Positions 29,640 to 57,799 of a stretch of DNA of 64,000 nt are shown here, piece after piece. Origin of the DNA: Glaucostegus cemiculus (Eukaryota); NCBI GenBank assembly GCA_976551045.1, contig CDPCPM010000005.1:2852001-2916000 (forward strand). Reading direction: 5' to 3'. Under the pieces are notes generated by a model. It was not told the DNA's origin and ran no database searches. It worked only from the letters and a program-made list of their open reading frames with translations. Numbering within the stretch: position 1 is the first letter of the stretch; every line of letters begins with the position of its first letter. The translations under genes were made by a program, and so were the position numbers.

Positions 29640-30990
29640 TGCTCAGGAAGTCCTGGGACCAAAGTAGAAGCAGGTCAGTAGGAATGCACAGAATGACAGT
29701 TTCAAAGCATGGCAGATTTGGCATGAAGCTGAAGCAGGTCACAGATGCAGAAAGTCCATTGATTGTCACAAAAGGATACAAGATGGGGACAAGGATGTTC
29801 AAGGCACTTCAATGCAATTGAATTTTAGAGGAGATAACGTGGAGGATTAATGAACTATTGCGATTGATGACATTTACATGGAGTTTATTGTGGCTTTTGA
29901 CAGGATCCCACGTATCAGACTGCTCTGCAAAATAAAAGCTGATGACATCTGAGGGAAAGTGGCAAATTGGATCGAAAATTGGTTCAGTAGCAGAATGCAA
30001 AGGGTAATAGTTTGTGAGTGTTTCTGCGACTGAAAGGATGATTGCATTGAAGTGCCATGAAGCTTAAAGGTCCCTTGCTGCTTCATATCAGTGATTTAGC
30101 CTTATATGTAGGAGACTAGGTTAAGAAGTTTGAAAATGATTTAAAATTAGCCATGTAATTGATAGAGAGGAAGAATATTGTAGACTGCAGGAAGTCTGGT
30201 CTGGTCAGGTGGTAGAAAAGTGGCAAATGGCATTCAGTCTTGGGAAGTGTGAGGTAATGCATTAGGGGAGAACAAAAAAGGCAAGGGAATGCATAATAAA
30301 TTGTAGGATATAGAGAAGAATAGAGGACAGAGGGAACTTAAAGTGCACATCCACAGATCTCCAAAGGGAACAGGACAGGAAGATAAGGTAGATAAGACAA
30401 AACTTTATTTTCCCTAATTAGCTGAGGCATTGAATGTAGGGGATAGGGGAATCAATCTGGAAGTGTGTCATATACAAGTTAGGACATAGCTAATGCATTC
30501 AGTTCTGGTCACATTACAGGATGTGATAGCATGACAGATTGTACAGATGAGATTTATAGGGTCATTGCTAAGACAGGAGAAAAATAGTTATGAGAAAAGA
30601 GTGGCCAGTTTCCTTAAGAACTGAAGTGACCGAGGGGAAATTTAAGTGAGGTGCATGGAACTAAAGGTAATTTAGACAGAACAGGGAAGAAGGGACTATT
30701 ACATTGAGCAGAGAGGTCACTTACCAGGGGTATAGATGTAAAGTAGCTAGTAGCAGGATTGGGAGGAATTGACAAAAGTATTTTCATCCGGAAGTTGGTG
30801 TGAGCCTTAAATTCAATGACTGAATGGGTGTGGAAGCAGAAATCCTCATCGTGTTTAAAAAGAGAATTGTATGGTCTCTATGAGACCAAGGACCAGAAGC
30901 TGGGAAATGGGTTGGGCTGGATGGCTTTTTTTCCAGCAGGTGTGGACACAGTACACAAGATGACCTTCTGTGAAGTAAATCTGACAACAT
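29640..30990 (+). mobile_element. Old degraded CR1 RT region and 3' end
   Basis: Recognisable decayed motifs (GGCTTTTGACAGGATCCCAC, AAGTTTGAAAATGA, GTGGCAAATGG..AAGTGTGAGGTAATGCA, TTCAGTTCTGGTCAC) with many stops. Confidence 0.8.
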
Positions 30991-43198: not shown

Positions 43199-43532
43199 GA
43201 TTTCAGGATCCTTTGCACTGATTTCAGGGTCCTTTGTACTGATTTCAGGATCCTTTGCACTGATTTCAGGGTCCTTTGCACTGATTTCAGGGTCCTTTGT
43301 ACTGATTTCAGGATCCTTTGCACTGATTTCAGGGTCCTTTGTACTGATTTCAGGATCCTTTGTACTGATTTCAGGATCCTTTGCACTGATTTCAGGGTCC
43401 TTTGTACTGATTTCAGGATCCTTTGTACTGATTTCAGGATCCTTTGCACTGATTTCAGGGTCCTTTGCACTGATTTCAGGGCCCTTTGTACTGATTTCAG
43501 GATCCTTTGCACTGATTTCAGGGTCCTTTGCA
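43199..43532. repeat. 21-bp minisatellite GATTTCAGG(A/G)TCCTTTG(C/T)ACT, about 16 copies
   Basis: 15 full units plus one 19-bp unit, read directly; explains the three repetitive ORFs in the track. Confidence 0.98.
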
Positions 43533-45699: not shown

Positions 45700-46440
45700 A
45701 GTTAGTTAGTGGTGAATCTGTGGAATTTGTTGCCAGAGAGGGCTGTGGAGGCCAAATCATTGGGTGTATCTAAGGCAGAGATGGGTAGCTTCTTGATTGG
45801 TAAAAGGGGTTAAGGGTTGGGGGAGAAGGCAGGAGAAAGGGGTAACTGCAGAGAGTTGTGGACACAGCCCAGCGCGTTACGGAAACCAGCCTCCCCTCCA
45901 TGGACTCTGTCTATACCTTTCGCAGCCTTGGTGAAGCAGCCAGCGTAATCAAAGACCCCACCCACCCGGGTTATTCTCTCTTCTCTCCTCTCCCATCAGA
46001 CAGAAGATACAGGAACCTGAGGGCACGTACCACCAGGCTCAAGGAACAGCTTCTATGCCATGGTGATTAGACTATTGAACAGTTCCCTTATACGATGAGA
46101 TGGACTCTTGACCTCACAATCTACCTTGTTTGACCTTGCACCTTATTGTCTACCTGTACTACACTTCCTTGTTTGCTGTGACACTTTACTCTGTGTTCTG
46201 TTATTGATTTTACCCTGTACTACCTCAATGCACTCTGTTCTGCTTCACTGCGTAATGAATTGATCTGTATGATTGGTATGCAAGACAAGTTTTTCACTGT
46301 ACCTCAGTACAAGTAACAATAATAAACCGATACCAATACCAAAGAGGTTGGAAAAAAGATCAGCCATGATTAAATGGCAGAACAGACTCAATGGGCCAAA
46401 TGGCCTAATTCTGCTCCTGTATGTTATGGTCTTATGACCA
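45700..46440 (+). mobile_element. CR1 3' end split by a Rex1/Babar 3' fragment (45844-46340)
   Basis: CR1 GTGGTGAATCTGTGGAATT...GAGAAGGCAGG | insert | ...GGGCCAAATGGCCTAATTCTGCTCC; near-TSD AAAGGGGT / AAAGAGGT; insert encodes KDPTHPGYSLFSPLPSDRRYR. Confidence 0.82.
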
Positions 46441-47164: not shown

Positions 47165-48631
47165 GGGTCTGTGTTGACCTGACAGTGTATGAGGATCAAA
47201 CAGGGATGTGCCCTGTGCCTTGTTCAGTCCAGCTAACTCACACTTTGGAATTTCCGACCTCTTTCTATTCATTTTGTTTGAAAAATTGCATGTTGCAAAC
47301 TCACCATTCAGATTTTAAAAGAATGGTTTCACATCAGCTCACTTTTCGTTTCTTAATGTTTATTTCTGAAAGGACAATTTCACTTAAACACAAACTATCT
47401 TCTTAGGTAATTTGAACCTTAAATGGGAAGGACAGCTTCAGTTAGCACTACCTTAAATACAGGGAGGTTGATCTCAATCTTCAGTGACTCGGTCTGAAGT
47501 ATTGCCAAAGGCAGGATGCAGAGAGGATAGCCTGCCGGAGAACTTTGCACACCCATCACTGATGTAGTTGAGCTTTCTTTCAAAAAATTTAAAAGGAACG
47601 AAACTCCAGCAATGCTTCTTGCCAGATTTTCCAATCTGTGGTCTTCCCAGACTCAGTCCATAAAGACCAAATTCGACTCCAGTGTATTATGATCCGTCAT
47701 CAGAGACGAAGGATTTCAGTGGGGTAAATCATCCTAGAATATTTTTGCAGTACATTTCTGACTGTCTGACTGTCTGATTTGTCTCTGGTTTACTCGTTAC
47801 AATTAGTTCTCCAGTGATATTGCTGACAGCCAATATAAGACTGGCCATGTGATTTCTTCGGTATGATCCATTTACTCCTTTGAAAGATAAAATTGTCAAG
47901 TTCTCACTAACTTCCTAATGAAATGCAAAGGAATTAAGTTGGTAATATCAGGAGGGTTTGTTTTTGAGTTTTGTTCACAAATCCTGAGTTTGTCAATGTC
48001 ATCTCCAATCCGGCAAACTGGGCAAGGCTGTCAGCTTCCAGTCTGAAGACATGATCATACTAGTGACCAGCATTTGATTGGGTTATCCAATACAGGGCAA
48101 AATGTGATAAGATACCAGATATTTTTATATCTTAAATTTTTATCAATTAAAATTGCACTGCTGTATTTTTCTTAATTCAGTCATGGGATATGGATGTCAC
48201 TGGCGAGGCCAACTTTAATTCCCTGCGTGAATTACCTAATTTGTCTAATGTGATTAATTAAAAGCAATAATCTATTTTAATTTTTCTATTTTTAATCTTT
48301 TCTTATTCATTTGCCTATATTTTGACTGCTGTAAATAACCATGTCATTGCCTTTTCCTTTATTCAGTGAATGATTTCCATCTCGCATGAATTAAAAACAA
48401 AAAATTAATATAAAGGTAACATACTAGAGTAGAAATTTACCCCATCCACAATGGTAGCATTGGCACAATGTCCTCTGCCTTGGAAATTCTGTTCCATTGA
48501 ATTCAATAGAACAAAATTGTCTGTGACCTCACATTCTACCTTACAATAGAACAATAGAACAATAGAACAATACAGCACAGAACAGGCCCTTCGGCCCATC
48601 AAGCTGTGCCATCCTACAAACATCTCCCAAA

Positions 48632-51600
48632 CTAACTCTTTCCACCCTCATATCCTACTATTCCACATTCTTCCATGTGCTTATCTAACAATCTCTTAAA
48701 CCTGTCCAACGTATCTACCTCCACTACCACCCCAGGCAGTGCATTCCATGCACCAACCACTCTCTGGGTGAAAAACTTCCCTCTGACGTCTCCCCTATAC
48801 TTTTCACCTATTATCTTAAAGGCATGCCCTCTCGTCTTGAGCATCTGCGCTCTGGGAAAGAGGCGCTGACTATTAACTCTATCTATTCCTCTCAATATCT
48901 TAAACACCTCTATCAAGTCCCCTCTCATCCTCCTCCTCTCTAATGAGTAGAGCCCTAACACCTTAAGCCTCTCTTTATATTCCATACCCTCCAATCCAGG
49001 CATCATCCTGGTAAAACGCCTCTGCACCCTCTCCAACGCCTCCACATCCTTCCTATAATGCGGCGACCAAAACTGAACACAATATTCCAAGTGCGGCCTA
49101 ACTAGAGTTTTGTAAAGCAGCATCATCACCTCTCTGCTCTTGAACTCAATCCCTTTATTTATAAAAGCCAACATCCCATAAGCCTTCTTAACAGCCCTAT
49201 CCACCTGCGAGGCAACTTTGAGCGAACTGTGGATATGAACCCCCAGATCCCTCTGCTCCTCTACACTGCCAAGAACCTTACCATTTACCTTATACTCTGT
49301 CCTGGAGTTTGTCCTCCCAAAGTGCACCACCTCACACTTCTCCGGATTAAACTCCATCTGCCACCTATCAGCCCATTTCTGCATCCTATCAATATCCCCC
49401 TGTAAGCTCCTACAGTCCTCCACACTATCTACCACACCACCGATCTTGGTGTCATCTGCAAACTTACCAACCCATCCCTCCACTCCTTCATCCAAATCAT
49501 CTATGAATATAACAAAGAGTAGAGGCCCCAGAACCGATCCCTGCGGGACTCCACTAGTCACAGCCCTCCAATCCGAGGGCACTCCCTCCACCATAACCCT
49601 CTGCCTTCTACAGGAAAGCCAATTTCTTATCCACACAGCCAACCTCCCCTGGATACCTCGACCTCTGACCTTCTGAAGAAGCCTGCCATGAGGAACCTTA
49701 TCGAACGCCTTACTAAAATCCATATACACTACATCCACCGCCCTGCCCTCATCAAGCTTCCTCGTCACCTCCTCAAAGAACTCTATCAGGCTCGTGAGGC
49801 AAGATCTTCCCTTCACAAAGCCATGCTGACTGTCCCTAATCAGTCCATGACTCTCCAAGTGCTCATAGATCCTGTCCCTCAAAATCCTTTCCAACAGCTT
49901 ACCTACCACAGACGTGAGGCTCACCGGTCTGTAATTTCCCGGACTATCTCTACTGCCCTTCTTAAACAAGGGAACAATATCCGCTACTCGCCAATCCTCC
50001 GGCACCATCCCCGTGGACAACGAGGACTCAAAGATCCTCACCAGCGGATCAACAATCTCCTCCCTCGCCTCCCGAAGCAGCCTGGGGAATATTCCATCGG
50101 GCCCCGGAGACTTATCAGTCTTGATACTACTTAACAATTTCATCACCTCCTCCCTCTCTATAGCTACATACTCAAGAATATTACCCTTGTCAGCACTCAC
50201 TGTCACATCATCAAGGCCCCTCTCCTTGGTGAATACAGAGGAGAAGTATTCATTAAGTACCTCCCCTACCTCTGCCGCCTCCAGGCACATCCTCCCACCT
50301 TTGTCCTTAATAGGCCCTACCTTTACCCTAGTCATCCTTCTGCCCTTCACATAAGAGAAAAAAGCCTTGGGATTTTCCTTAACCCTACGAGCCAACATCT
50401 TTTCATGTCCCCTTCTAGCTCTCCTCAGCTCTTTCTTAAGTTCCCTTCTCACTATACTATACTCCTCACGGGCCACATCAGAGCCTTGCCGCTTACACCT
50501 TACGTAAGCCTCCTTCTTCCTCCTAACCAGTCTTTCTACCTCTCTTGTCACCCACGGTTCCTTCACTATTCCATTCTTCCTCCGTCTTGCCGGAACATAT
50601 CTGTCCCCAACATCCTGTAAAACATCCCTGAACAACGTCCACATCTCTACAGTACACATCCCCTCAAAAAGGACTTCCCAATTTACACTCCCAAGCTCTT
50701 TCCTTATAGCCTCATAGTCTGCCCTACCCCAATTGAATATCTTCCTACGCTCCCTGCACTTATGCCTGTCCATGACAATTCTAAAGCTTATCGAGGAATG
50801 ATCACTGTCTCCCAGAGGCTCACCCACTAGTAGATCTCTCACCTGTCCCGGTTCATTTCCTAAGACCAGATCCAACACAGCATTCCCTCTAGTCGGTTTG
50901 TCAACATACTGCTCCAGAAATCCATCCTGGACACACTTAACAAACTCATTCCCATCCAAACCTCTGGCACTGAGCATGTCCCAGTCTATATTCGGGAAGT
51001 TGAAATCACCCATTATTACAACCCTATTATCTTTGCTTCTGTCCAAGCACTGCCTGCCAATCTGCTCCTCTATATCCCTACTGCTACCTGGGGGCCTATA
51101 GTATACTCCCAGCAGCGTAACCACACTTTTCCTATTCCTCACTTCCACCCACACCGACTCGAAAGAGGATCCTTCCGCAAACTCAGCCCTTTCCGCAGCC
51201 GTAACATCATCTCTGACCAATATCGCCACCCCTCCTCCTCTTCTCCCCCCCTCCCTATCCTTTTTAAAACACTGAAAACCAGGAATGTTCAATACCCACT
51301 CCTGCCCTGACGACAGCCACGTCTCAGTTATGGCTACAATATCATAATCCCCCATACCTATCCAAGCCCTCAATTCATCACCCTTATTCCTAACACTTCT
51401 CGCATTAAAGTAAACACACTTTAACCCATCCAATTTAACCCTTTTATAGCCCTCATCCTGCCTCTCTCTCCCCAAAGCCTCATCACCTGCTCGATGCAAC
51501 TCATCTCCATCTTCAGTACACGTCGACGTGATCCTGCATACCTCCTCCTTTAAGCCATGTTGGTTTCCCTTGCCTTGCCTGTCTAGTTTATCCACCTTTT

Positions 51601-51733
51601 TACTATTACTGCCTGTACACTGCTTCTCCTTCCTCAAAGCAACTCCATTTGTCAGATCTGCCTTTTCTGTAATCCCTACATCCTCTGACCAGCCCTCCTG
51701 GTTCCCAACCCCCATCTCAACTAGTTTAAACAC
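48632..51733 (-). CDS. CR1 ORF2: apurinic endonuclease + reverse transcriptase
   Basis: 1033 open codons. APE motifs YFNARS, ITETW, YRPP, GDFN, LDLV, SDH; RT motifs PGPDG, NYRPVSL, QHGF, DFSKAFD, GVPQGSVLGP, FADD. First in-frame ATG at 51715. Confidence 0.97.
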   Translation of the reverse strand: MFKLVEMGVGNQEGWSEDVGITEKADLTNGVALRKEKQCTGSNSKKVDKLDRQGKGNQHGLKEEVCRITSTCTEDGDELHRAGDEALGRERQDEGYKRVKLDGLKCVYFNARSVRNKGDELRAWIGMGDYDIVAITETWLSSGQEWVLNIPGFQCFKKDREGGRRGGGVAILVRDDVTAAERAEFAEGSSFESVWVEVRNRKSVVTLLGVYYRPPGSSRDIEEQIGRQCLDRSKDNRVVIMGDFNFPNIDWDMLSARGLDGNEFVKCVQDGFLEQYVDKPTRGNAVLDLVLGNEPGQVRDLLVGEPLGDSDHSSISFRIVMDRHKCRERRKIFNWGRADYEAIRKELGSVNWEVLFEGMCTVEMWTLFRDVLQDVGDRYVPARRRKNGIVKEPWVTREVERLVRRKKEAYVRCKRQGSDVAREEYSIVRRELKKELRRARRGHEKMLARRVKENPKAFFSYVKGRRMTRVKVGPIKDKGGRMCLEAAEVGEVLNEYFSSVFTKERGLDDVTVSADKGNILEYVAIEREEVMKLLSSIKTDKSPGPDGIFPRLLREAREEIVDPLVRIFESSLSTGMVPEDWRVADIVPLFKKGSRDSPGNYRPVSLTSVVGKLLERILRDRIYEHLESHGLIRDSQHGFVKGRSCLTSLIEFFEEVTRKLDEGRAVDVVYMDFSKAFDKVPHGRLLQKVRGRGIQGRLAVWIRNWLSCRRQRVMVEGVPSDWRAVTSGVPQGSVLGPLLFVIFIDDLDEGVEGWVGKFADDTKIGGVVDSVEDCRSLQGDIDRMQKWADRWQMEFNPEKCEVVHFGRTNSRTEYKVNGKVLGSVEEQRDLGVHIHSSLKVASQVDRAVKKAYGMLAFINKGIEFKSREVMMLLYKTLVRPHLEYCVQFWSPHYRKDVEALERVQRRFTRMMPGLEGMEYKERLKVLGLYSLERRRMRGDLIEVFKILRGIDRVNSQRLFPRAQMLKTRGHAFKIIGEKYRGDVRGKFFTQRVVGAWNALPGVVVEVDTLDRFKRLLDKHMEECGIVGYEGGKS

Positions 51734-52380
51734 TCATCAACCACCCAAGCATAACGTGTTGCCAGGATATTTGCCCCCCACCGGTTGGGGTGTAACCTGT
51801 CCTCTCTGTACAGGTTCCACCTTCCCCAGAATAGATCCCAATTATCCAAAAATCTAAATCCCTCTGCCCTGCACCACTCTCTCAGCCACGTATTTAACTG
51901 CCTCCTCTCCCTGTTCCTAACTTCCCTATCACGTGGCACCGGGAGTAATCCAGAGATTACTACCCTTGAGGTCCTGGTCTTCAGCTTTCTGCCTAGCTCC
52001 CTGAACTCCCCTTGCAGGACCTCATCCCTCTTTCTACCTATGTCGTTGGTACCAACATGAACCACGACTACTGGCTGCTCTCCCTCCCGATTGAGAATCC
52101 GGGGAACCCGATCAGTAATATCCTGGACCCTGGCACCAGGGAGGCAACATACCATCCGGTATTCATGATCACTTCCACAGAATCTCCTATCTGTTTCCCT
52201 GACTATCGAGTCCCCTATCACCACTACATTACTCTTCACCTTCTTCCCCATCTGAGCAGTAGTACTGGTCATGGTGCCAGTGACCTGGGTACTTGTGCTT
52301 GGTCCCTGCAGGCTATCCCCCTCCACAGTTTCCAAAGTTGAAAACCTGTTACTGAGGGGAACAGCCCCCAGGGTGCCCTG
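51721..52380 (-). CDS. CR1 ORF1 C-terminal part, SGNH/GDSL esterase domain (5'-truncated)
   Basis: PLSNRF, VIGDSIVR, PGARV, HVGTND and DRLHPN blocks; frame stays open to the truncation point; ends ...ECLN*. Confidence 0.93.
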   Translation of the reverse strand, partial: QGTLGAVPLSNRFSTLETVEGDSLQGPSTSTQVTGTMTSTTAQMGKKVKSNVVVIGDSIVRETDRRFCGSDHEYRMVCCLPGARVQDITDRVPRILNREGEQPVVVVHVGTNDIGRKRDEVLQGEFRELGRKLKTRTSRVVISGLLPVPRDREVRNRERRQLNTWLREWCRAEGFRFLDNWDLFWGRWNLYREDRLHPNRWGANILATRYAWVVDECLN

Positions 52381-52381
52381 C

Positions 52382-52578
52382 TCTACCTTGCGCGACCTTG
52401 CACCTTATTGCACTGCACTTTCTCTGTAGCTGTGACACTTTATTCTGTACTGTTACTGTTTTCACTGTACTATTTCAATGGCACTGTGTAATGAATTGAC
52501 CTGTATGATCGGTTTGTAAGACAAGTTTTTCACTGTACCTCGGTACAAGTGACAATAATAAACCAATACCAATACCAT
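52382..52578 (+). mobile_element. Rex1/Babar 3' UTR; its 5' piece lies at 48525-48542, split by CR1 element A
   Basis: Joining GACCTCACATTCTACCTT to GCGCGACCTTGCACCTTATTG matches the intact copy at 46110-46340. Confidence 0.85.
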
Positions 52579-52579
52579 A

Positions 52580-52800
52580 TCAAAGTGCAGCTTCTGCCTC
52601 ACATCTCTAGTGAACCAGATTCAATCCTGACCTCTGGTGCTGATTGCATGGAGTCTGCACATTCTCTTTCTGACCACATGGGTTTCTTCTGGGTGCTCTG
52701 GTTTCTTCCCACATCCCTCAGATATACTGGTAAGGTAATTGGTTACTGTGAATTACTCCTTAGTGTAGGTTAATGGCAAAGTGGAGTTGATGGGTATGTG
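52580..52800 (+). mobile_element. Older V-type SINE
   Basis: GATTCAATCCTGACC...GGGTTTCTTCTGGGTGCTCTGGTTTCTTCCCACATCCC. Confidence 0.75.
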
Positions 52801-52809
52801 TGACTCAGG

Positions 52810-53145
52810 GAGTAATACAGCCTGGAAGTAGGCCCTTCAGCCCAACTCATCCATGCTGACCAAGATGCCCATCTAAGCTAGTCCCTTTTTCCCGTGTTTA
52901 GCCCCTATCCCTCTAAACTTTTCCTATCCATGTATCTGTCCGTGTCTTTTCAACATTGTTGTTGTACCTGTCTCAACCACTTCATTTGGCAGCTCATTCC
53001 ATATACGTACCACCCTCTGCGTGAAGAAGTTGCCCCTTTTAAATATTTCCCCTCCCACCTTAAACTCACGCCCTCTAGTTGTTGACTCCCTTTCCCTAGG
53101 AAAAAGACTGTGTGCATTCACATTATCCCTGCCCCTCATAACTTT
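52810..53145 (-). mobile_element. CR1 3' fragment
   Basis: LFPRERESTTRGREFKV..NFFTQRVVRIWNELP. Confidence 0.85.
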
Positions 53146-53280
53146 CATGAGAGAGAATAAAATTATGGCAAGGTCCTAATGCATCATTATTAGATAAGAT
53201 AGGAGGAGTACTTGATGGTTGGCAGGGTCACAATGGGCCGAAGGACCTTTATCTGTGCTGTATTACTCTATGAATCCTGA

Positions 53281-53583
53281 AGGGTCCTGAAGGAAGAATA
53301 CAGAGAGTTAGGAAGAAAGTTGAGGAGAAGGACCCCTAAGGTGGTAATCTCAGGATTGCTGCCTGTGCCACGCGCAAGCAGTAGCAGGAACAGAAAGATT
53401 TGGCAAATAAACGCGTGGCTTAGTGACTGGTGCAGGGGGCAGGGCTTCAGATTCCTGGACCATTGGGACCTTTTTTGGGGGAGGGACGACCTATACTGCA
53501 AGGATGGGTTACACCTCAACTCAAAAGGGTCCAGAGTCCTGGCGGGATTATTTAACATAGCTGTTGGGGAAGGTTTAAACTAA
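53281..53583 (+). CDS. CR1 ORF1 C-terminal esterase fragment
   Basis: VVISGLLPVPR, NAWLSDWC, FLDHWDLFWGR, DGLHLN; homologous to element A ORF1; ends ...EGLN*. Confidence 0.92.
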   Translation, partial: RVLKEEYRELGRKLRRRTPKVVISGLLPVPRASSSRNRKIWQINAWLSDWCRGQGFRFLDHWDLFWGRDDLYCKDGLHLNSKGSRVLAGLFNIAVGEGLN

Positions 53584-56500
53584 TCAAGCAGGGGGATGGG
53601 ACCCAGAATATTAGGGTAAAAGTAGATAGAGGAAGGCAAGAGTTAAATAAAAATAGGTCAAAGTTAGTGCGTGATCAGGATGGCAAGACGGACAGGCAGG
53701 TAATTAATCAAGGTAACATGCTGAATGACAATAGTACAGTAAATGAGGATGTTAGGTCACAGAATGTTAGACGAGAGGTGGAGGCAGATAAAAAGAAGTC
53801 CATGACAGTGAGCAGTCAGGATCGAAAGAAGGGCGAGGAAATGGAAATTAAGGATAAGTTGCTCAAGAAAGGAAGCGCAGCAAAATCAACAGTGGTTAAT
53901 GAGCTAAAGGTATTATACTTAAATGCACGTAGCATCAGGAACAAGGCAGATGAACTAGCAGCACAGCTGCAGATTAATAAATATGACATTGTGGCAATTA
54001 CTGAGTCGTGGCTGCATGATGGATGTGACTGGGAGCTCAATGTCCAGGGGTACACAGTGTATAGGAAGGATAGGCGGGAAGGTAGAGGGGGTGGTGTGGC
54101 CATGATGGTTAGTAATGAGATAAAATCAATAGAAAGGAAGGATATTAGGTCAGATGAAGTGGAAACTTTATGGGTGGAGCTAAGGAATAGCAAGAGTAAG
54201 AGGACAGTTGTAGCTGTTGTATATAGGCCCCCTAATAGCAATCAGGAGGTAGACCATAAGTTGCGGTTAGAGATAGAAAAGGCATGTCAGAGTGACAATA
54301 TCAAAATAATTATGGGTGACTTTAACATGAAGGTGGACTGGGAAACCCAGCAAGGCAGCAGTTCTCAGGAGAGCGAGTTTGTTGAATGTTTACGGGATGG
54401 CTTTTTGGAACAACTTGTTGATGAGCCCACCAGGGGATCGGCTGTTTTGGATTGGGTGTTGTGTAATGAACCGGAGGTGATTAGAGAACTAAGGGTAAAG
54501 GAACCATTAGGAACTAGTGACCATAATATGATTGAGTTCAGAATGAAATTTGAAAAGGAGAAGCTGATGACTGGAGTGTCGACATTTCAGTGGAACAAGG
54601 GGAATTACAGAAGGATGAGAGAAGAGTTGGCCCAGATTGATTGGGAATATAAGCTCGCTGGAGGGACGGCCGAACATAAATGGGTGGAATTTAAGCAAGT
54701 AATAAAGAAAATGCAGGACAGACACATTCCAAGAAAAAAGAAGGTTTTAAATGGAAAAAGGGCACAAATGTGGATAACGAGAGAGGTGAAAGCTAAAATA
54801 AGAGCAAAAGGGAGGGCATATAAGGTAGCAAGAAAAAGCGGAAAAACAGAAGACTGGGAAACTTTTAAGAACCTACAGAAAGAAACTAAGAAGGTCATTA
54901 GAAAAGAAAAGAGAAATTACGAAATGAAATTGGCAGAAAATATTCAAAAGGATACTAAGAGTTTTTTTAAATATATAAGAAGCAAAAGAGAGACGCGGGT
55001 TGATATAGGACCGATAGAAAATGAGGTGGGAGAGATTATTATGGGTGATAAAGAGATGGCGGAGGAGCTAAATCAGTATTTTGCGTCGGTCTTCACGGTA
55101 GAAGATATTAACAATATACCGGTTAGTCAAGGGTCTCGAGGGACGGAATTAAAGACAGTTAAGGTTACGAGAGAGAAAGTGTTGGGGAAGCTAAATGGGT
55201 TAAAGACTGATAAGTCTCCGGGACCGGATGAGATACATCCCCGTGTACTGAAGGAAGTAGCTCTAGAAATAGTGGAGGCATTAGTGATAATTTTTCAGGA
55301 ATCGATAGACGCTGGAGAGGTGCCGGAGGACTGGAGGGTCGCGAATGTAGTTCCATTGTATAAGAAAGGTGGGAGACAGCACAGAGGAAATTACAGACCT
55401 ATCAGTCTTACATCTGTGGTGGGGAAGATACTAGAATCGATCCTCAAGGATGAGGTGATGGGATACATGGAGGTGCAAGGCAAGATAGGTCCTAGTCAAC
55501 ATGGATTCGTGAAGGGAAGATCCTGCCTGACCAATTTATTGGAGTTTTTTGAAGAAATCTCAGGCAGGGTGGACAAGGGAGAGGCCGTAGATGTAGTGTA
55601 TTTAGACTTTCAGAAGGCATTCGACAAGGTGCCGCACAAAAGACTAATTAGTAAGATGAGAGATCACGGAATAACGGGCAGGATAACAGAATGGGTGGAG
55701 AGTTGGCTGGATGGCAGGAAACAGAGGGTGGGAATAAAAGGATCGTGTTCTGGTTGGCTGCCGGTTACTAGTGGTGTTCCGCAGGGGTCGGTGTTGGGGC
55801 CCCTTCTTTTTACCTTATATATTAATGATTTAGACGAAGGAGTCAATGGGTTTGTGGCCAAGTTTGCAGATGACACTAAGATTGGGGGAGGAGTGGAGAG
55901 TATTGAGGAGACAGGAAAGTTACAGAGAGACTTGGATATTCTAGGAGAATGGGCGAAGAAATGGCAGATGAGGTTCAACGTGGAAAAATGTGCAGTTGTA
56001 CACTTCGGAAGTAGAAATGGAAGGGCAGACTATTATCTAGAAGGAGATAAAATTGGAAGCACAGAAGTACAAAGGGACTTAGGGGTGCTCGTACAGGATA
56101 ACCTAAAGGTTAACCGCCAGGTTGGATCGGCAGTAAGGAAAGCGAATGCTATGTTGGCATTTATTTCGAGGGGTATAGTATATAAAAGCAAGGAAGTGTT
56201 GATGAGGCTATATGGGGCACTGGTGAGGCCTCACTTGGAGTACTGTGTGCAGTTTTGGGCCCCATACCTTAGGAAGGATGTGCTGATGTTGGAGAGGGTT
56301 CAGAGGAGATTTACTAGGATGATTCCTGGGATGAAAAAGTTTACATATGACGAGCGACTGTCGTCACTTGGACTGTACTCGTTGGAGTACAGAAGAATGA
56401 GAGGGGACCTAATAGAAACGTACAGGATGTTGAAAGGAATGGACCAAGTGAATGTGGTCAAGCTGTTTCCCTTGGTGGGGGAATCCAGGACTAGAGGACA

Positions 56501-56702
56501 CAAACTTAGAATTAGAAGAAGCAGGTTCATAACAGAGATAAGGAGGAATTTCTTTAGCCAGAGGGTGGTGAACCTGTGGAACTCCTTACCACAGAGAGCA
56601 GTGGAAGCCAGATCATTGGGGATATTCAAGAAGGAAATAGATAGATATCTAATTGGTCAAGGTATCAGGGGATATGGAGATAAGGCAGGGATTTGGACTT
56701 AG
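53574..56702 (+). CDS. CR1 ORF2: apurinic endonuclease + reverse transcriptase
   Basis: Frame open from the ORF1 junction (FKLIKQGDG...; the ORF track starts at GTG 53667, first ATG 53718). Motifs LNARS, ITESW, YRPP, GDFN, SDH, PGPD, QHGF, DFQKAFD, GVPQGSVLGP, FADD. Confidence 0.97.
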   Translation, partial: FKLIKQGDGTQNIRVKVDRGRQELNKNRSKLVRDQDGKTDRQVINQGNMLNDNSTVNEDVRSQNVRREVEADKKKSMTVSSQDRKKGEEMEIKDKLLKKGSAAKSTVVNELKVLYLNARSIRNKADELAAQLQINKYDIVAITESWLHDGCDWELNVQGYTVYRKDRREGRGGGVAMMVSNEIKSIERKDIRSDEVETLWVELRNSKSKRTVVAVVYRPPNSNQEVDHKLRLEIEKACQSDNIKIIMGDFNMKVDWETQQGSSSQESEFVECLRDGFLEQLVDEPTRGSAVLDWVLCNEPEVIRELRVKEPLGTSDHNMIEFRMKFEKEKLMTGVSTFQWNKGNYRRMREELAQIDWEYKLAGGTAEHKWVEFKQVIKKMQDRHIPRKKKVLNGKRAQMWITREVKAKIRAKGRAYKVARKSGKTEDWETFKNLQKETKKVIRKEKRNYEMKLAENIQKDTKSFFKYIRSKRETRVDIGPIENEVGEIIMGDKEMAEELNQYFASVFTVEDINNIPVSQGSRGTELKTVKVTREKVLGKLNGLKTDKSPGPDEIHPRVLKEVALEIVEALVIIFQESIDAGEVPEDWRVANVVPLYKKGGRQHRGNYRPISLTSVVGKILESILKDEVMGYMEVQGKIGPSQHGFVKGRSCLTNLLEFFEEISGRVDKGEAVDVVYLDFQKAFDKVPHKRLISKMRDHGITGRITEWVESWLDGRKQRVGIKGSCSGWLPVTSGVPQGSVLGPLLFTLYINDLDEGVNGFVAKFADDTKIGGGVESIEETGKLQRDLDILGEWAKKWQMRFNVEKCAVVHFGSRNGRADYYLEGDKIGSTEVQRDLGVLVQDNLKVNRQVGSAVRKANAMLAFISRGIVYKSKEVLMRLYGALVRPHLEYCVQFWAPYLRKDVLMLERVQRRFTRMIPGMKKFTYDERLSSLGLYSLEYRRMRGDLIETYRMLKGMDQVNVVKLFPLVGESRTRGHKLRIRRSRFITEIRRNFFSQRVVNLWNSLPQRAVEARSLGIFKKEIDRYLIGQGIRGYGDKAGIWT

Positions 56703-57799
56703 AATAGTAGGTGGGTTTTTTTTTTTCCCCCCCCCCCCCCCCCACCTTCCCTTCCCTTTGGAGCAGACTCGATGGGCCGACTGGCCTGCTTCTGCTCCAT
56801 TATCTTGTGATCTTGTGATCTTGTGAATCTATAAGCAGTAGCACAGATGAGTTGGGCTGATTGGCCTCTTTCTGTGCCACCTAGACTATGTAATTTAATG
56901 CAATGTATTCATTCAAGAGCAGTATGATCTTACACATTTGAACATGCTCCCTCTTCTCTGTGGGACTGAGCGCCATTCAGTGCAAAACTGTATATGGATT
57001 CCTTTTCGTCATTCAGTGATTCTGAAGGAAATCTTTCTCGATATCCCTTGCAAAAAACAAGCAGTTCTCTGGCTGCTGGCAAGGCTGACAGAAGGGAGGA
57101 AACACATGTTTGCTACTGCACCAAGCCTCTTGAGAAAAGCATGACAACCCTTCAATCCTTTTCGTGTGCCCAAATCTTCCTTTTATCCAGTTTCTTCACA
57201 ACTCTTTCAAAAGGGATAATTTAACATATTTGATATCATAAAGCACTTATTCCCTCAGAATTGAAATGCAGCATTTGATTTAGAGAAGATAACACATGAT
57301 CGTGGATAAATTGACAAGTGTTAAGGCTACTGTCAATATAGTTCATCCATCAAGTGATTTCAAAAGCAGTAGGGTTGATAGCTGAACCACTTGGCAGAGA
57401 TTTAGCAATTGCACTGTAATGAACCTGATCATGTCTGTCCTTTCCTATCTTGACAGATGACAAGCTCTCCTGCAGAGCATGCGGTAGTATATATGAAACA
57501 GAACTGTCTAGCATTTAACCAGTGGATGGAACATGTGTTTAGCTGAAGGAAAACCACAACTCCAAATGTTAATTATTGGTATTTTTTATTTATTTCATTC
57601 TTCAATTATTGTGTCAGTCCCAAGATGGAAATTGTTTTGTTAAAATGAAGCATGGTGGTTAATGCTTCGGAATAAAAATGAGTTATTTTTCATCCTCTAA
57701 TACAAATGGAATGCATAATGCCATGATAAAAACAAATGGTAAACACACTGCCATTATATACTGAAACAATGTTGATGACCAAAGCTGATCCTACAATTG

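Follow-up and report, generated by a model that had tools for sequence, protein, structure and literature searches.

Two CR1 elements lie head-to-head in the window

The window (the whole stretch of DNA analysed, 64,000 nt) holds two CR1-type LINEs, called A and B here, arranged head-to-head. Their parts are as follows.

48543..52381, minus strand: CR1 element A, 5'-truncated inside ORF1
52389-52382 and 48542-48535: target-site duplication of A, 8 bp, AAGGTAGA
51721..52381, minus strand: ORF1 remnant of A with an SGNH/GDSL esterase domain, ending ...VVDECLN-stop
48632..51733, minus strand: ORF2 frame of A, 1033 codons with no internal stop (leader, APE endonuclease, reverse transcriptase)
48543..48572, minus strand: 3' tail of A, an 8-bp microsatellite in 3.8 copies
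about 53270-56826, plus strand: CR1 element B
53281..53583, plus strand: ORF1 remnant of B, its last 100 codons, ending ...AVGEGLN-stop
53556..56702, plus strand: ORF2 frame of B, 1048 codons with no stop, APE-RT
56802..56826, plus strand: 3' tail of B, the 8-bp microsatellite ATCTTGTG in 3.1 copies

The ORF1 remnant of A matches PF13472 (E 2.5e-17) and PDB 4C1B (E 1.3e-33). Both ORF2 frames carry PF03372, PF14529 and PF00078 with their motifs intact, and in A an open, divergent leader of about 100 codons precedes the APE endonuclease. The ORF1 remnants of B and A are 60% identical over 99 aa, and the ORF2 products share 494 of 1,010 aligned residues (about 49%). The N-terminal zinc finger/leucine zipper of ORF1 has been cut off by 5' truncation in both copies; homologues show CxxC pairs. 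The ends of B, checked alongside those of A, show no clear target-site duplication. The 3' UTR of B contains a long poly-T followed by poly-C and a CCTTCCCTTCCC tract (56718-56758, plus strand) that is absent from the 3' UTR of A.

An esterase ORF1, an APE-RT ORF2, an 8-bp microsatellite tail without poly(A) and 5' truncation fit membership of both elements in the CR1 clade, and together with their vertebrate relatives they resemble its subgroup 7, whose type IVB ORF1 joins a zinc finger/leucine zipper to an esterase (as described in part of PMC4120745). The nearest named ORF1 relative of A comes from Pristis pectinata (74%), and sharks and rays make up the majority of the named matches, which makes a cartilaginous fish the probable host. 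In the ORF1 tree A falls among proteins of sharks, fish, turtles and lizards, the ZfL2-1 group standing separate. Since A and B have lost their 5' ends, any signal at the junction of their ORFs comes from the parent elements and is not used in place.

ORF1 of both elements ends in a slippery heptamer

The ORF1/ORF2 junctions contain the following features.

51724..51730, minus strand: slippery heptamer of A, T TTA AAC, covering the last two ORF1 codons in phase
51721..51723, minus strand: ORF1 stop of A, TAG, adjoining the heptamer
51734..51739, minus strand: two TGA stops at the upstream end of the ORF2 (-1) frame of A
53574..53583, plus strand: slippery heptamer of B, T TTA AAC, with its TAA stop

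On the minus strand the ORF1 frame of A reads GAT GAG TGT TTA AAC TAG. The ORF2 frame of the same strand reads, from 51739 to 51698, TGA TGA GTG TTT AAA CTA GTT GAG ATG GGG GTT GGG AAC CAG; that is, two stops are followed by VFKLVEMGVGNQ, after which the -1 frame runs without a stop across APE and RT, 1033 codons in all (51733-48632). The sequence-only reading had placed an in-phase TTTAAAC at 51730-51724 (minus strand), taken the -1 frame to be ORF2, and let the TGA at 51736-51734 limit the overlap to 51733-51721. Reading both frames bore out all of this: as that TGA closes the -1 frame, the ORFs of A overlap by 13 nt. The overlap in B is 28 nt (53556-53583). As expected of a -1 frameshift site, an X XXY YYZ heptamer lies in the phase of ORF1, ORF2 is open in the -1 frame from the heptamer on, and no start codon is conserved.

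TTTAAAC is found 27 times in the window, against 14.8 expected, and is followed by a stop at 2 of these 27 places, which are the A and B junctions. There is no third ORF1/ORF2 junction within the window, and none of its decayed CR1 ORF2 fragments extends that far. The overlap of A starts with GTG in the ORF2 frame (51731-51733, minus strand), a possible near-cognate start; B has AGG.

The junction is a conserved island

At fourfold degenerate third positions, A and B are identical at 43 of 148 sites, which is near random and indicates saturation. The codons of the heptamer are seldom held in common elsewhere: both elements use TTA at 1 of 44 conserved Leu pairs and AAC at 1 of 14 conserved Asn pairs. 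With synonymous sites near random and such pairs rare, the common heptamer is not a matter of passive inheritance. Identity from the heptamer onward is 26 of 33 nt (a length picked post hoc), compared with 3 of 15 and 8 of 15 in the two preceding blocks and with background afterwards, so that the earlier description of the two leaders as differing entirely but staying open holds for the open frames and fails for "entirely". Past the stop, A and B agree at 17 of 23 nt; the maximum among 80,256 leader-vs-leader pairs of 23-mers is 16. The junction is thus a conserved island. Beyond codon 11 the leaders cannot be aligned and show no significant similarity (best E 0.18), and leaders as open as these arose by chance in 8 and 3 of 20,000 shuffles.

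ORF1 relatives end in Leu-Asn

Two ORF1 protein searches (88 of 398 and 42 of 1,057 candidates) yielded 102 proteins. We left out 38 that lacked either the last esterase motif, as defined by a pattern, or a tail of 20-50 aa, and kept 64; the pattern skips one LN-ending turtle protein, P0065. Among the 63 distinct tails of these close relatives, 60 end in LN, 1 in IN and 2 otherwise, counts that are descriptive because the protein rows are related. The named matches give the same picture: 24 of the 41 have a tail of 20-50 aa and 22 of these 24 end in LN, the LN ends coming from sharks, rays, Paramormyrops, sturgeon, turtles and lizards. LN stays terminal while the length of the tail ranges from 25 to 39 aa. 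The heptamer is seen as DNA at two junctions and is deduced from protein ends at all others. The proteins in one alignment (A1) were selected for LN or IN ends, and its invariant Asn is therefore not counted as evidence.

The heptamer needs a T before TTA AAC, so the residue ahead of LN must have a T-ending codon. Residues that have none (E, Q, K, M and W) occupy this position in 1 of 90 tails, while the two positions ahead of it have them in 39 and 33 of 90; pyrimidine-only residues occupy it in 27 of 90. The same five residues are also low at -6 and -7 (4 of 90 and 7 of 90), on a hydrophobic helix face, and the test at -3 is therefore not free of structural effects. Position -3 accepts D, H, N, Y, S and T and avoids E, Q and K, while -6 and -7 are hydrophobic.

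Some of the proteins recovered merit separate mention. In P0176, P0246 and P0173, 1, 2 or more extra residues stand between LN and the stop, which suggests junction variants or lost stops. P0003 and P0103 are CR1-type ORF1 and ORF2 proteins filed under Pseudomonas aeruginosa and Carnobacterium on contigs of 3-4 kb, and are probably contamination by animal DNA. A scan of GTDB for more junctions yielded no CR1, its 25 matches being bacterial SGNH loci with 22-34% identity. Several gene models (P0001, P0070, P0092, P0058, P0098) consist partly or wholly of CR1 ORF1/ORF2 under host names (40S ribosomal protein S24, NUBP1, hydroxyacid oxidase 2 and others), reflecting either mis-annotation or exonisation.

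Other lineages end in residues that match other heptamers

For covariation we used the best 150 representatives at 50% clustering, 87 of which have a tail, 83 of them distinct. These 83 tails end in LN (38), GN (8, all QGN), KN (2, both SKN), EN (1), SN (2) or otherwise (32). A heptamer-compatible tripeptide is terminal in 47 of 83, compared with 883 of 24,157 internal positions. QGN matches G GGA AAC and SKN matches A AAA AAC, both in a clade more distant than the LN relatives. Leu, Gly and Lys have no common chemistry, yet they are the products of TTA, GGA and AAA; U_UUA_AAC, G_GGA_AAC and A_AAA_AAC belong to a set of four heptamers that one review counts among the most shifty on mammalian ribosomes (PMC5009743).

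The ends were then set against the ORF1 tree (88 rows; a quick version with SH-aLRT support only, the terminal residues having been left out). The clade of A has LN in 33 of its 37 rows, and two 6-row clades have LN in 4 and 5. A 16-row clade contains GN 8, KN 2, EN 1, LN 1 and other 4, and LN is found in 0 rows of both an 11-row clade and the 10-row ZfL2-1 clade. Overall, 32 of the 83 representative tails, whole clades among them, are compatible with no heptamer, and QGN, invariant in its own rows, could be a peptide motif. The ORF1p of ZfL2-1 is a homologous SGNH esterase from a clade without a heptamer-compatible end; its solved structure (PDB 4C1B) has ...RLLRTI as its end and stops two residues before the LN position, which makes Leu-Asn dispensable for the fold. 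In an AlphaFold model of the A ORF1 (mean pLDDT 92), Leu is the last residue of the terminal helix and Asn lies outside it.

The heptamer, its phase, the frame relation, the open leader, the conservation and the covariation are all present in the sequences compared. The earlier frameshift reading is supported beyond two copies, both by a heptamer retained at saturated sites and by relatives whose C-termini follow heptamer-compatible codons. A role of the same letters at the RNA or DNA level, as a splice acceptor (...AACTAG, spliced after the G), as a site of polymerase slippage on TTTAAA or as an endonuclease target, would fit the CTAG that follows a branch-point-like TTAAAC in A and the fact that GTTTAAAC is palindromic in both elements. 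Such a role predicts neither a codon phase nor a swap to GGGAAAC or AAAAAAC, the TAA stop of B leaves no AG there, the upstream sequence is G-rich with no pyrimidine tract, and three-base runs are short for slippage by a polymerase. We find it scarcely credible.

A predicted ORF1p-ORF2p fusion and the question of separate starts

Judged from sequence, the esterase-ORF1 CR1 LINEs of vertebrates very probably use programmed -1 frameshifting, in the manner of retroviruses, to make an ORF1p-ORF2p fusion. The majority of ribosomes would read UUA AAC, stop, and release ORF1p with a Leu-Asn end. A minority would slip from UUA AAC to UUU AAA and read on in the -1 frame (in A, ...ECLN-LVEMGVGNQ...), crossing a linker that is variable, rich in charge and about 50-110 residues long before reaching the endonuclease and RT. 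In a full-length parent, with the length of ORF1 taken from homologues, the fusion would have about 1,340 aa. We infer that slippage occurs and that the working RT is this fusion.

LN-stop in one frame together with FKL in the other implies TTTAAA(C/T)T. Among 229 ORF1-search matches scanned, three proteins continue past the end of the esterase into FKL, which is what LN-stop becomes in the -1 frame:

P0091 (Hypanus gene model): ...REG-FKLNLQGAGIQ
P0092 (Hypanus gene model): ...RGG-FKLDVQGAGIQ
P0136: ...QKS-FKLGNLGRR

As these may result from indels, assembly errors or annotation, what they display is the sequence of the -1 frame rather than a natural fusion. A search aimed at longer proteins turned up two gene models that span the junction and no natural fusion of full length, which is weak evidence of absence. 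In a search with the ORF2 N-terminus (23 matches of 1,051 candidates), the seven new matches begin past the junction and are uninformative on FKL.

One start codon at the junction of A needs to be considered.

51713..51715, minus strand: in-frame ATG of A, not conserved

ORF2 might be made separately by termination-reinitiation, from ATG 51715 in A and from a later or non-AUG start elsewhere, with Leu-Asn-stop kept for the sake of the ORF1 protein. ATG 51715 lies 5 nt past the stop in a strong context (G at -3 and +4) and is the sole in-frame ATG of A ahead of the endonuclease; some Met precedes the endonuclease region in all five leaders; SART1 and L1 provide precedents for reinitiation or unconventional initiation, shown for the former and proposed for the latter (PMC3708506 and part of PMC5009743); and no structural stimulator was found at the A and B junctions. 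The position of the AUG is not conserved, however: the first Met after FKL comes at 6, 49, 19, 44 and 25 in the five junctions, and no UAAUG-type overlapping or otherwise conserved stop-start is found. In B the first in-frame ATG (53718) is preceded by two out-of-frame ATGs and by 48 codons of open frame. Reinitiation also leaves the choice of TTA and AAC, the preceding T-ending codon and the Leu/Gly/Lys covariation unexplained, and the solved ZfL2-1 homologue has no LN to keep. We therefore regard it as distinctly improbable. The 2A motif DxExNPGP is absent from the five leaders by eye.

The sequence-only reading had observed that ATG 51715 faces CAG in B, so that the heptamer is conserved and the ATG is not, and had retained reinitiation at 51715 as an alternative for A; the alignment confirms the former and we agree with the latter. 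Both routes may even coexist, with frameshifting ancestral and subfamily A adding free ORF2p from 51715, a view that overlaps with the fusion model and draws on the combination in A of a conserved heptamer with a strong ATG. Against it, the ATG differs from the CAG of B (Gln in P0091 and P0092) only outside a conserved G, which is the first G of a G5 run common to A and B, and the ATG may thus be incidental. Neither the window nor the search with the ORF2 N-terminus offered another subfamily-A copy that includes a junction. A real contribution of the ATG is unlikely, if worth bearing in mind.

A G-rich motif is the leading candidate for a stimulator

Three features downstream of the heptamers bear on how frameshifting might be stimulated.

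51688..51702, minus strand: 5-bp hairpin ACCAG/CTGGT (ACCAG-GAGGG-CTGGT), in A only
51698..51713, minus strand: G-rich motif of A, GGGGG-TT-GGGA-A-CCAG, candidate stimulator
53591..53606, plus strand: G-rich motif of B, GGGGG-AT-GGGA-C-CCAG

The small hairpin and the G-runs noted earlier downstream of the heptamer are present, and we reject the hairpin as a stimulator: it begins 21 nt past the heptamer, is missing from B and has a folding z close to zero. Over the 60 and 100 nt downstream, neither element folds better than shuffled sequence (z -0.09 to 0.34), and a two-sequence consensus fold is weak, with a two-sided change in 1 of 16 pairs. No stem-loop or pseudoknot lies 5-9 nt after the heptamer in A or B (pseudoknots and long-range pairing by a crude scan), and Rfam gives no match at the junctions and one chance-level match far away. 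With neither a structure at this distance nor an Rfam match, the efficiency of frameshifting could be low; lacking a 3' structure, the junction would, from its sequence, function like a canonical signal but is not classed as a canonical member.

What A and B share is an unstructured GGGGG-NN-GGGA-N-CCAG, exactly 10 nt past the heptamer at both (2/2) DNA junctions and occurring once per element; in B it includes an out-of-frame ATG at 53596. Both Gly codons of the motif are GGG in A and in B (background 30 of 94 and 22 of 79), and its variable residues keep a flanking base (ATG/CAG, GTT/GAT, AAC/ACC). These two properties point to constraint on the RNA and make the ATG of A look incidental. A peptide compatible with the motif is found in P0091 and P0092 and a different one in P0136, so the G motif could be confined to lineages of cartilaginous fish. 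The spacer between heptamer and stimulator is usually 5-9 nt, with 11-14 nt in arterivirus and cardiovirus signals (part of PMC5009743), and for the C-rich motif of PRRSV it is 10 nt in the wild type and efficient at 9-11 nt (part of PMC4937337).

Our leading guess, a tentative one made by analogy, is that the single-stranded GGGGG-NN-GGGA motif at its 10-nt spacer binds a putative G-run protein. A G4Hunter-like score reaches 1.64 in A, where 24 of 3,821 windows score as high, and 1.08 in B, where 101 of 3,536 do. ViennaRNA, run with quadruplexes allowed, predicts none, and a weak two-tier quadruplex is a minor option. Pausing at the adjacent stop and unstimulated low-level slippage are alternatives, and a contribution may also come from the stop, which adjoins the heptamer in nearly all tails. 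A long-range C-rich partner common to both elements was rejected, B having poly-C in its 3' UTR, which could pair with its own G motif, and A none there.

Relation to known systems

As in retroviral gag-pol and coronavirus 1a/1b, the polymerase of the CR1 elements lies in the -1 frame and the upstream structural/RNP protein would be made in excess. In Rous sarcoma virus, too, the stop directly follows the heptamer. The elements differ from these viruses in being non-LTR retrotransposons, in having no pseudoknot or stem-loop 5-9 nt downstream and in having no protease to cut the fusion. The heptamer and its phase in A and B match U_UUA_AAC of IBV (part of PMC5009743). With the nsp1-beta/PCBP system of the arterivirus PRRSV (part of PMC4937337) they share a short, unstructured, conserved motif at a 10-nt spacer, a likeness that is positional only, as their motif is G-rich and not C-rich, the heptamer is another one and protein binding is putative. 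Among non-LTR elements, the UAAUG termination-reinitiation of SART1, the unconventional ORF2 initiation of L1 and 2A-bearing elements yield low ORF2p from one mRNA (PMC3708506 and part of PMC3894237). Unlike these, A and B have no stop-start overlap, inter-ORF spacer or 2A, and frameshifting would give a fusion where theirs is free ORF2p.

Early papers on several non-LTR elements reportedly suggested frameshifting for overlapping ORFs, with no test of the idea. Frameshifting in the HeT-A gag gene is cited in part of PMC5009743, so recoding has a precedent among non-LTR elements; CR1 goes unmentioned in that portion of what is the main frameshifting review. Part of PMC3894237 treats ORF2 translation in non-LTR elements as an open question and weighs reinitiation, IRES and 2A, not frameshifting. 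The CR1 literature examined describes two ORFs without a slippery site or frameshifting, in contrast to the both-frame heptamer junction of A and B. Full-text searches gave no title or abstract that reports a CR1 frameshift site, although one may be mentioned in the first papers on CR1 (Haas 1997, Kajikawa 1997, Kapitonov and Jurka 2003) or in the Repbase notes. It is absent from the main text of PMC4255032, PMC3905857, PMC3708506, PMC8665684 and PMC4316615 (term search) and from the portions examined of PMC5009743, PMC11835228, PMC4120745 and PMC3894237.

A conserved -1 frameshift, if true, would mean that the RT of CR1, the most abundant repeat in chicken (part of PMC11835228), is made as an ORF1p fusion, that the ORF1p:ORF2p ratio is fixed as in Gag-Pol, that the RT is tethered to its own particle, and that gene models with ORF2 starting at Met are wrong. 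An efficient heptamer without nearby structure would point to an uncharacterised stimulator. The junction is real and strongly conserved, and it is most likely a retrovirus-type -1 site of a major LINE clade, its stimulator non-canonical or uncharacterised. It is rather doubtful, though conceivable, that jawed-vertebrate CR1 and at least three further esterase-LINE lineages (with UUUAAAC/GGGAAAC/AAAAAAC swaps) all make the fusion and that in cartilaginous fish a protein on the G motif, not an RNA structure, drives it. If true, this protein-driven version would mean that a cellular retroelement uses a trans-activated frameshift and that transposition has a switch which the host could control.

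Surrounding repeats

A and B are embedded in a nest of older repeats. The 0.9 kb between them (52390-53270) holds a decayed CR1 3' fragment (53160-52891, minus strand) and short CR1/SINE-like tail sequences, and further short decayed CR1 ORF2 fragments are found at 12397-12018, 29860-30012, 36996-36492 and 45709-45834. At 43199-43532 a 21-bp tandem repeat in 15.9 copies, with a higher-order period of 63 bp and several open frames, is probably a minisatellite.
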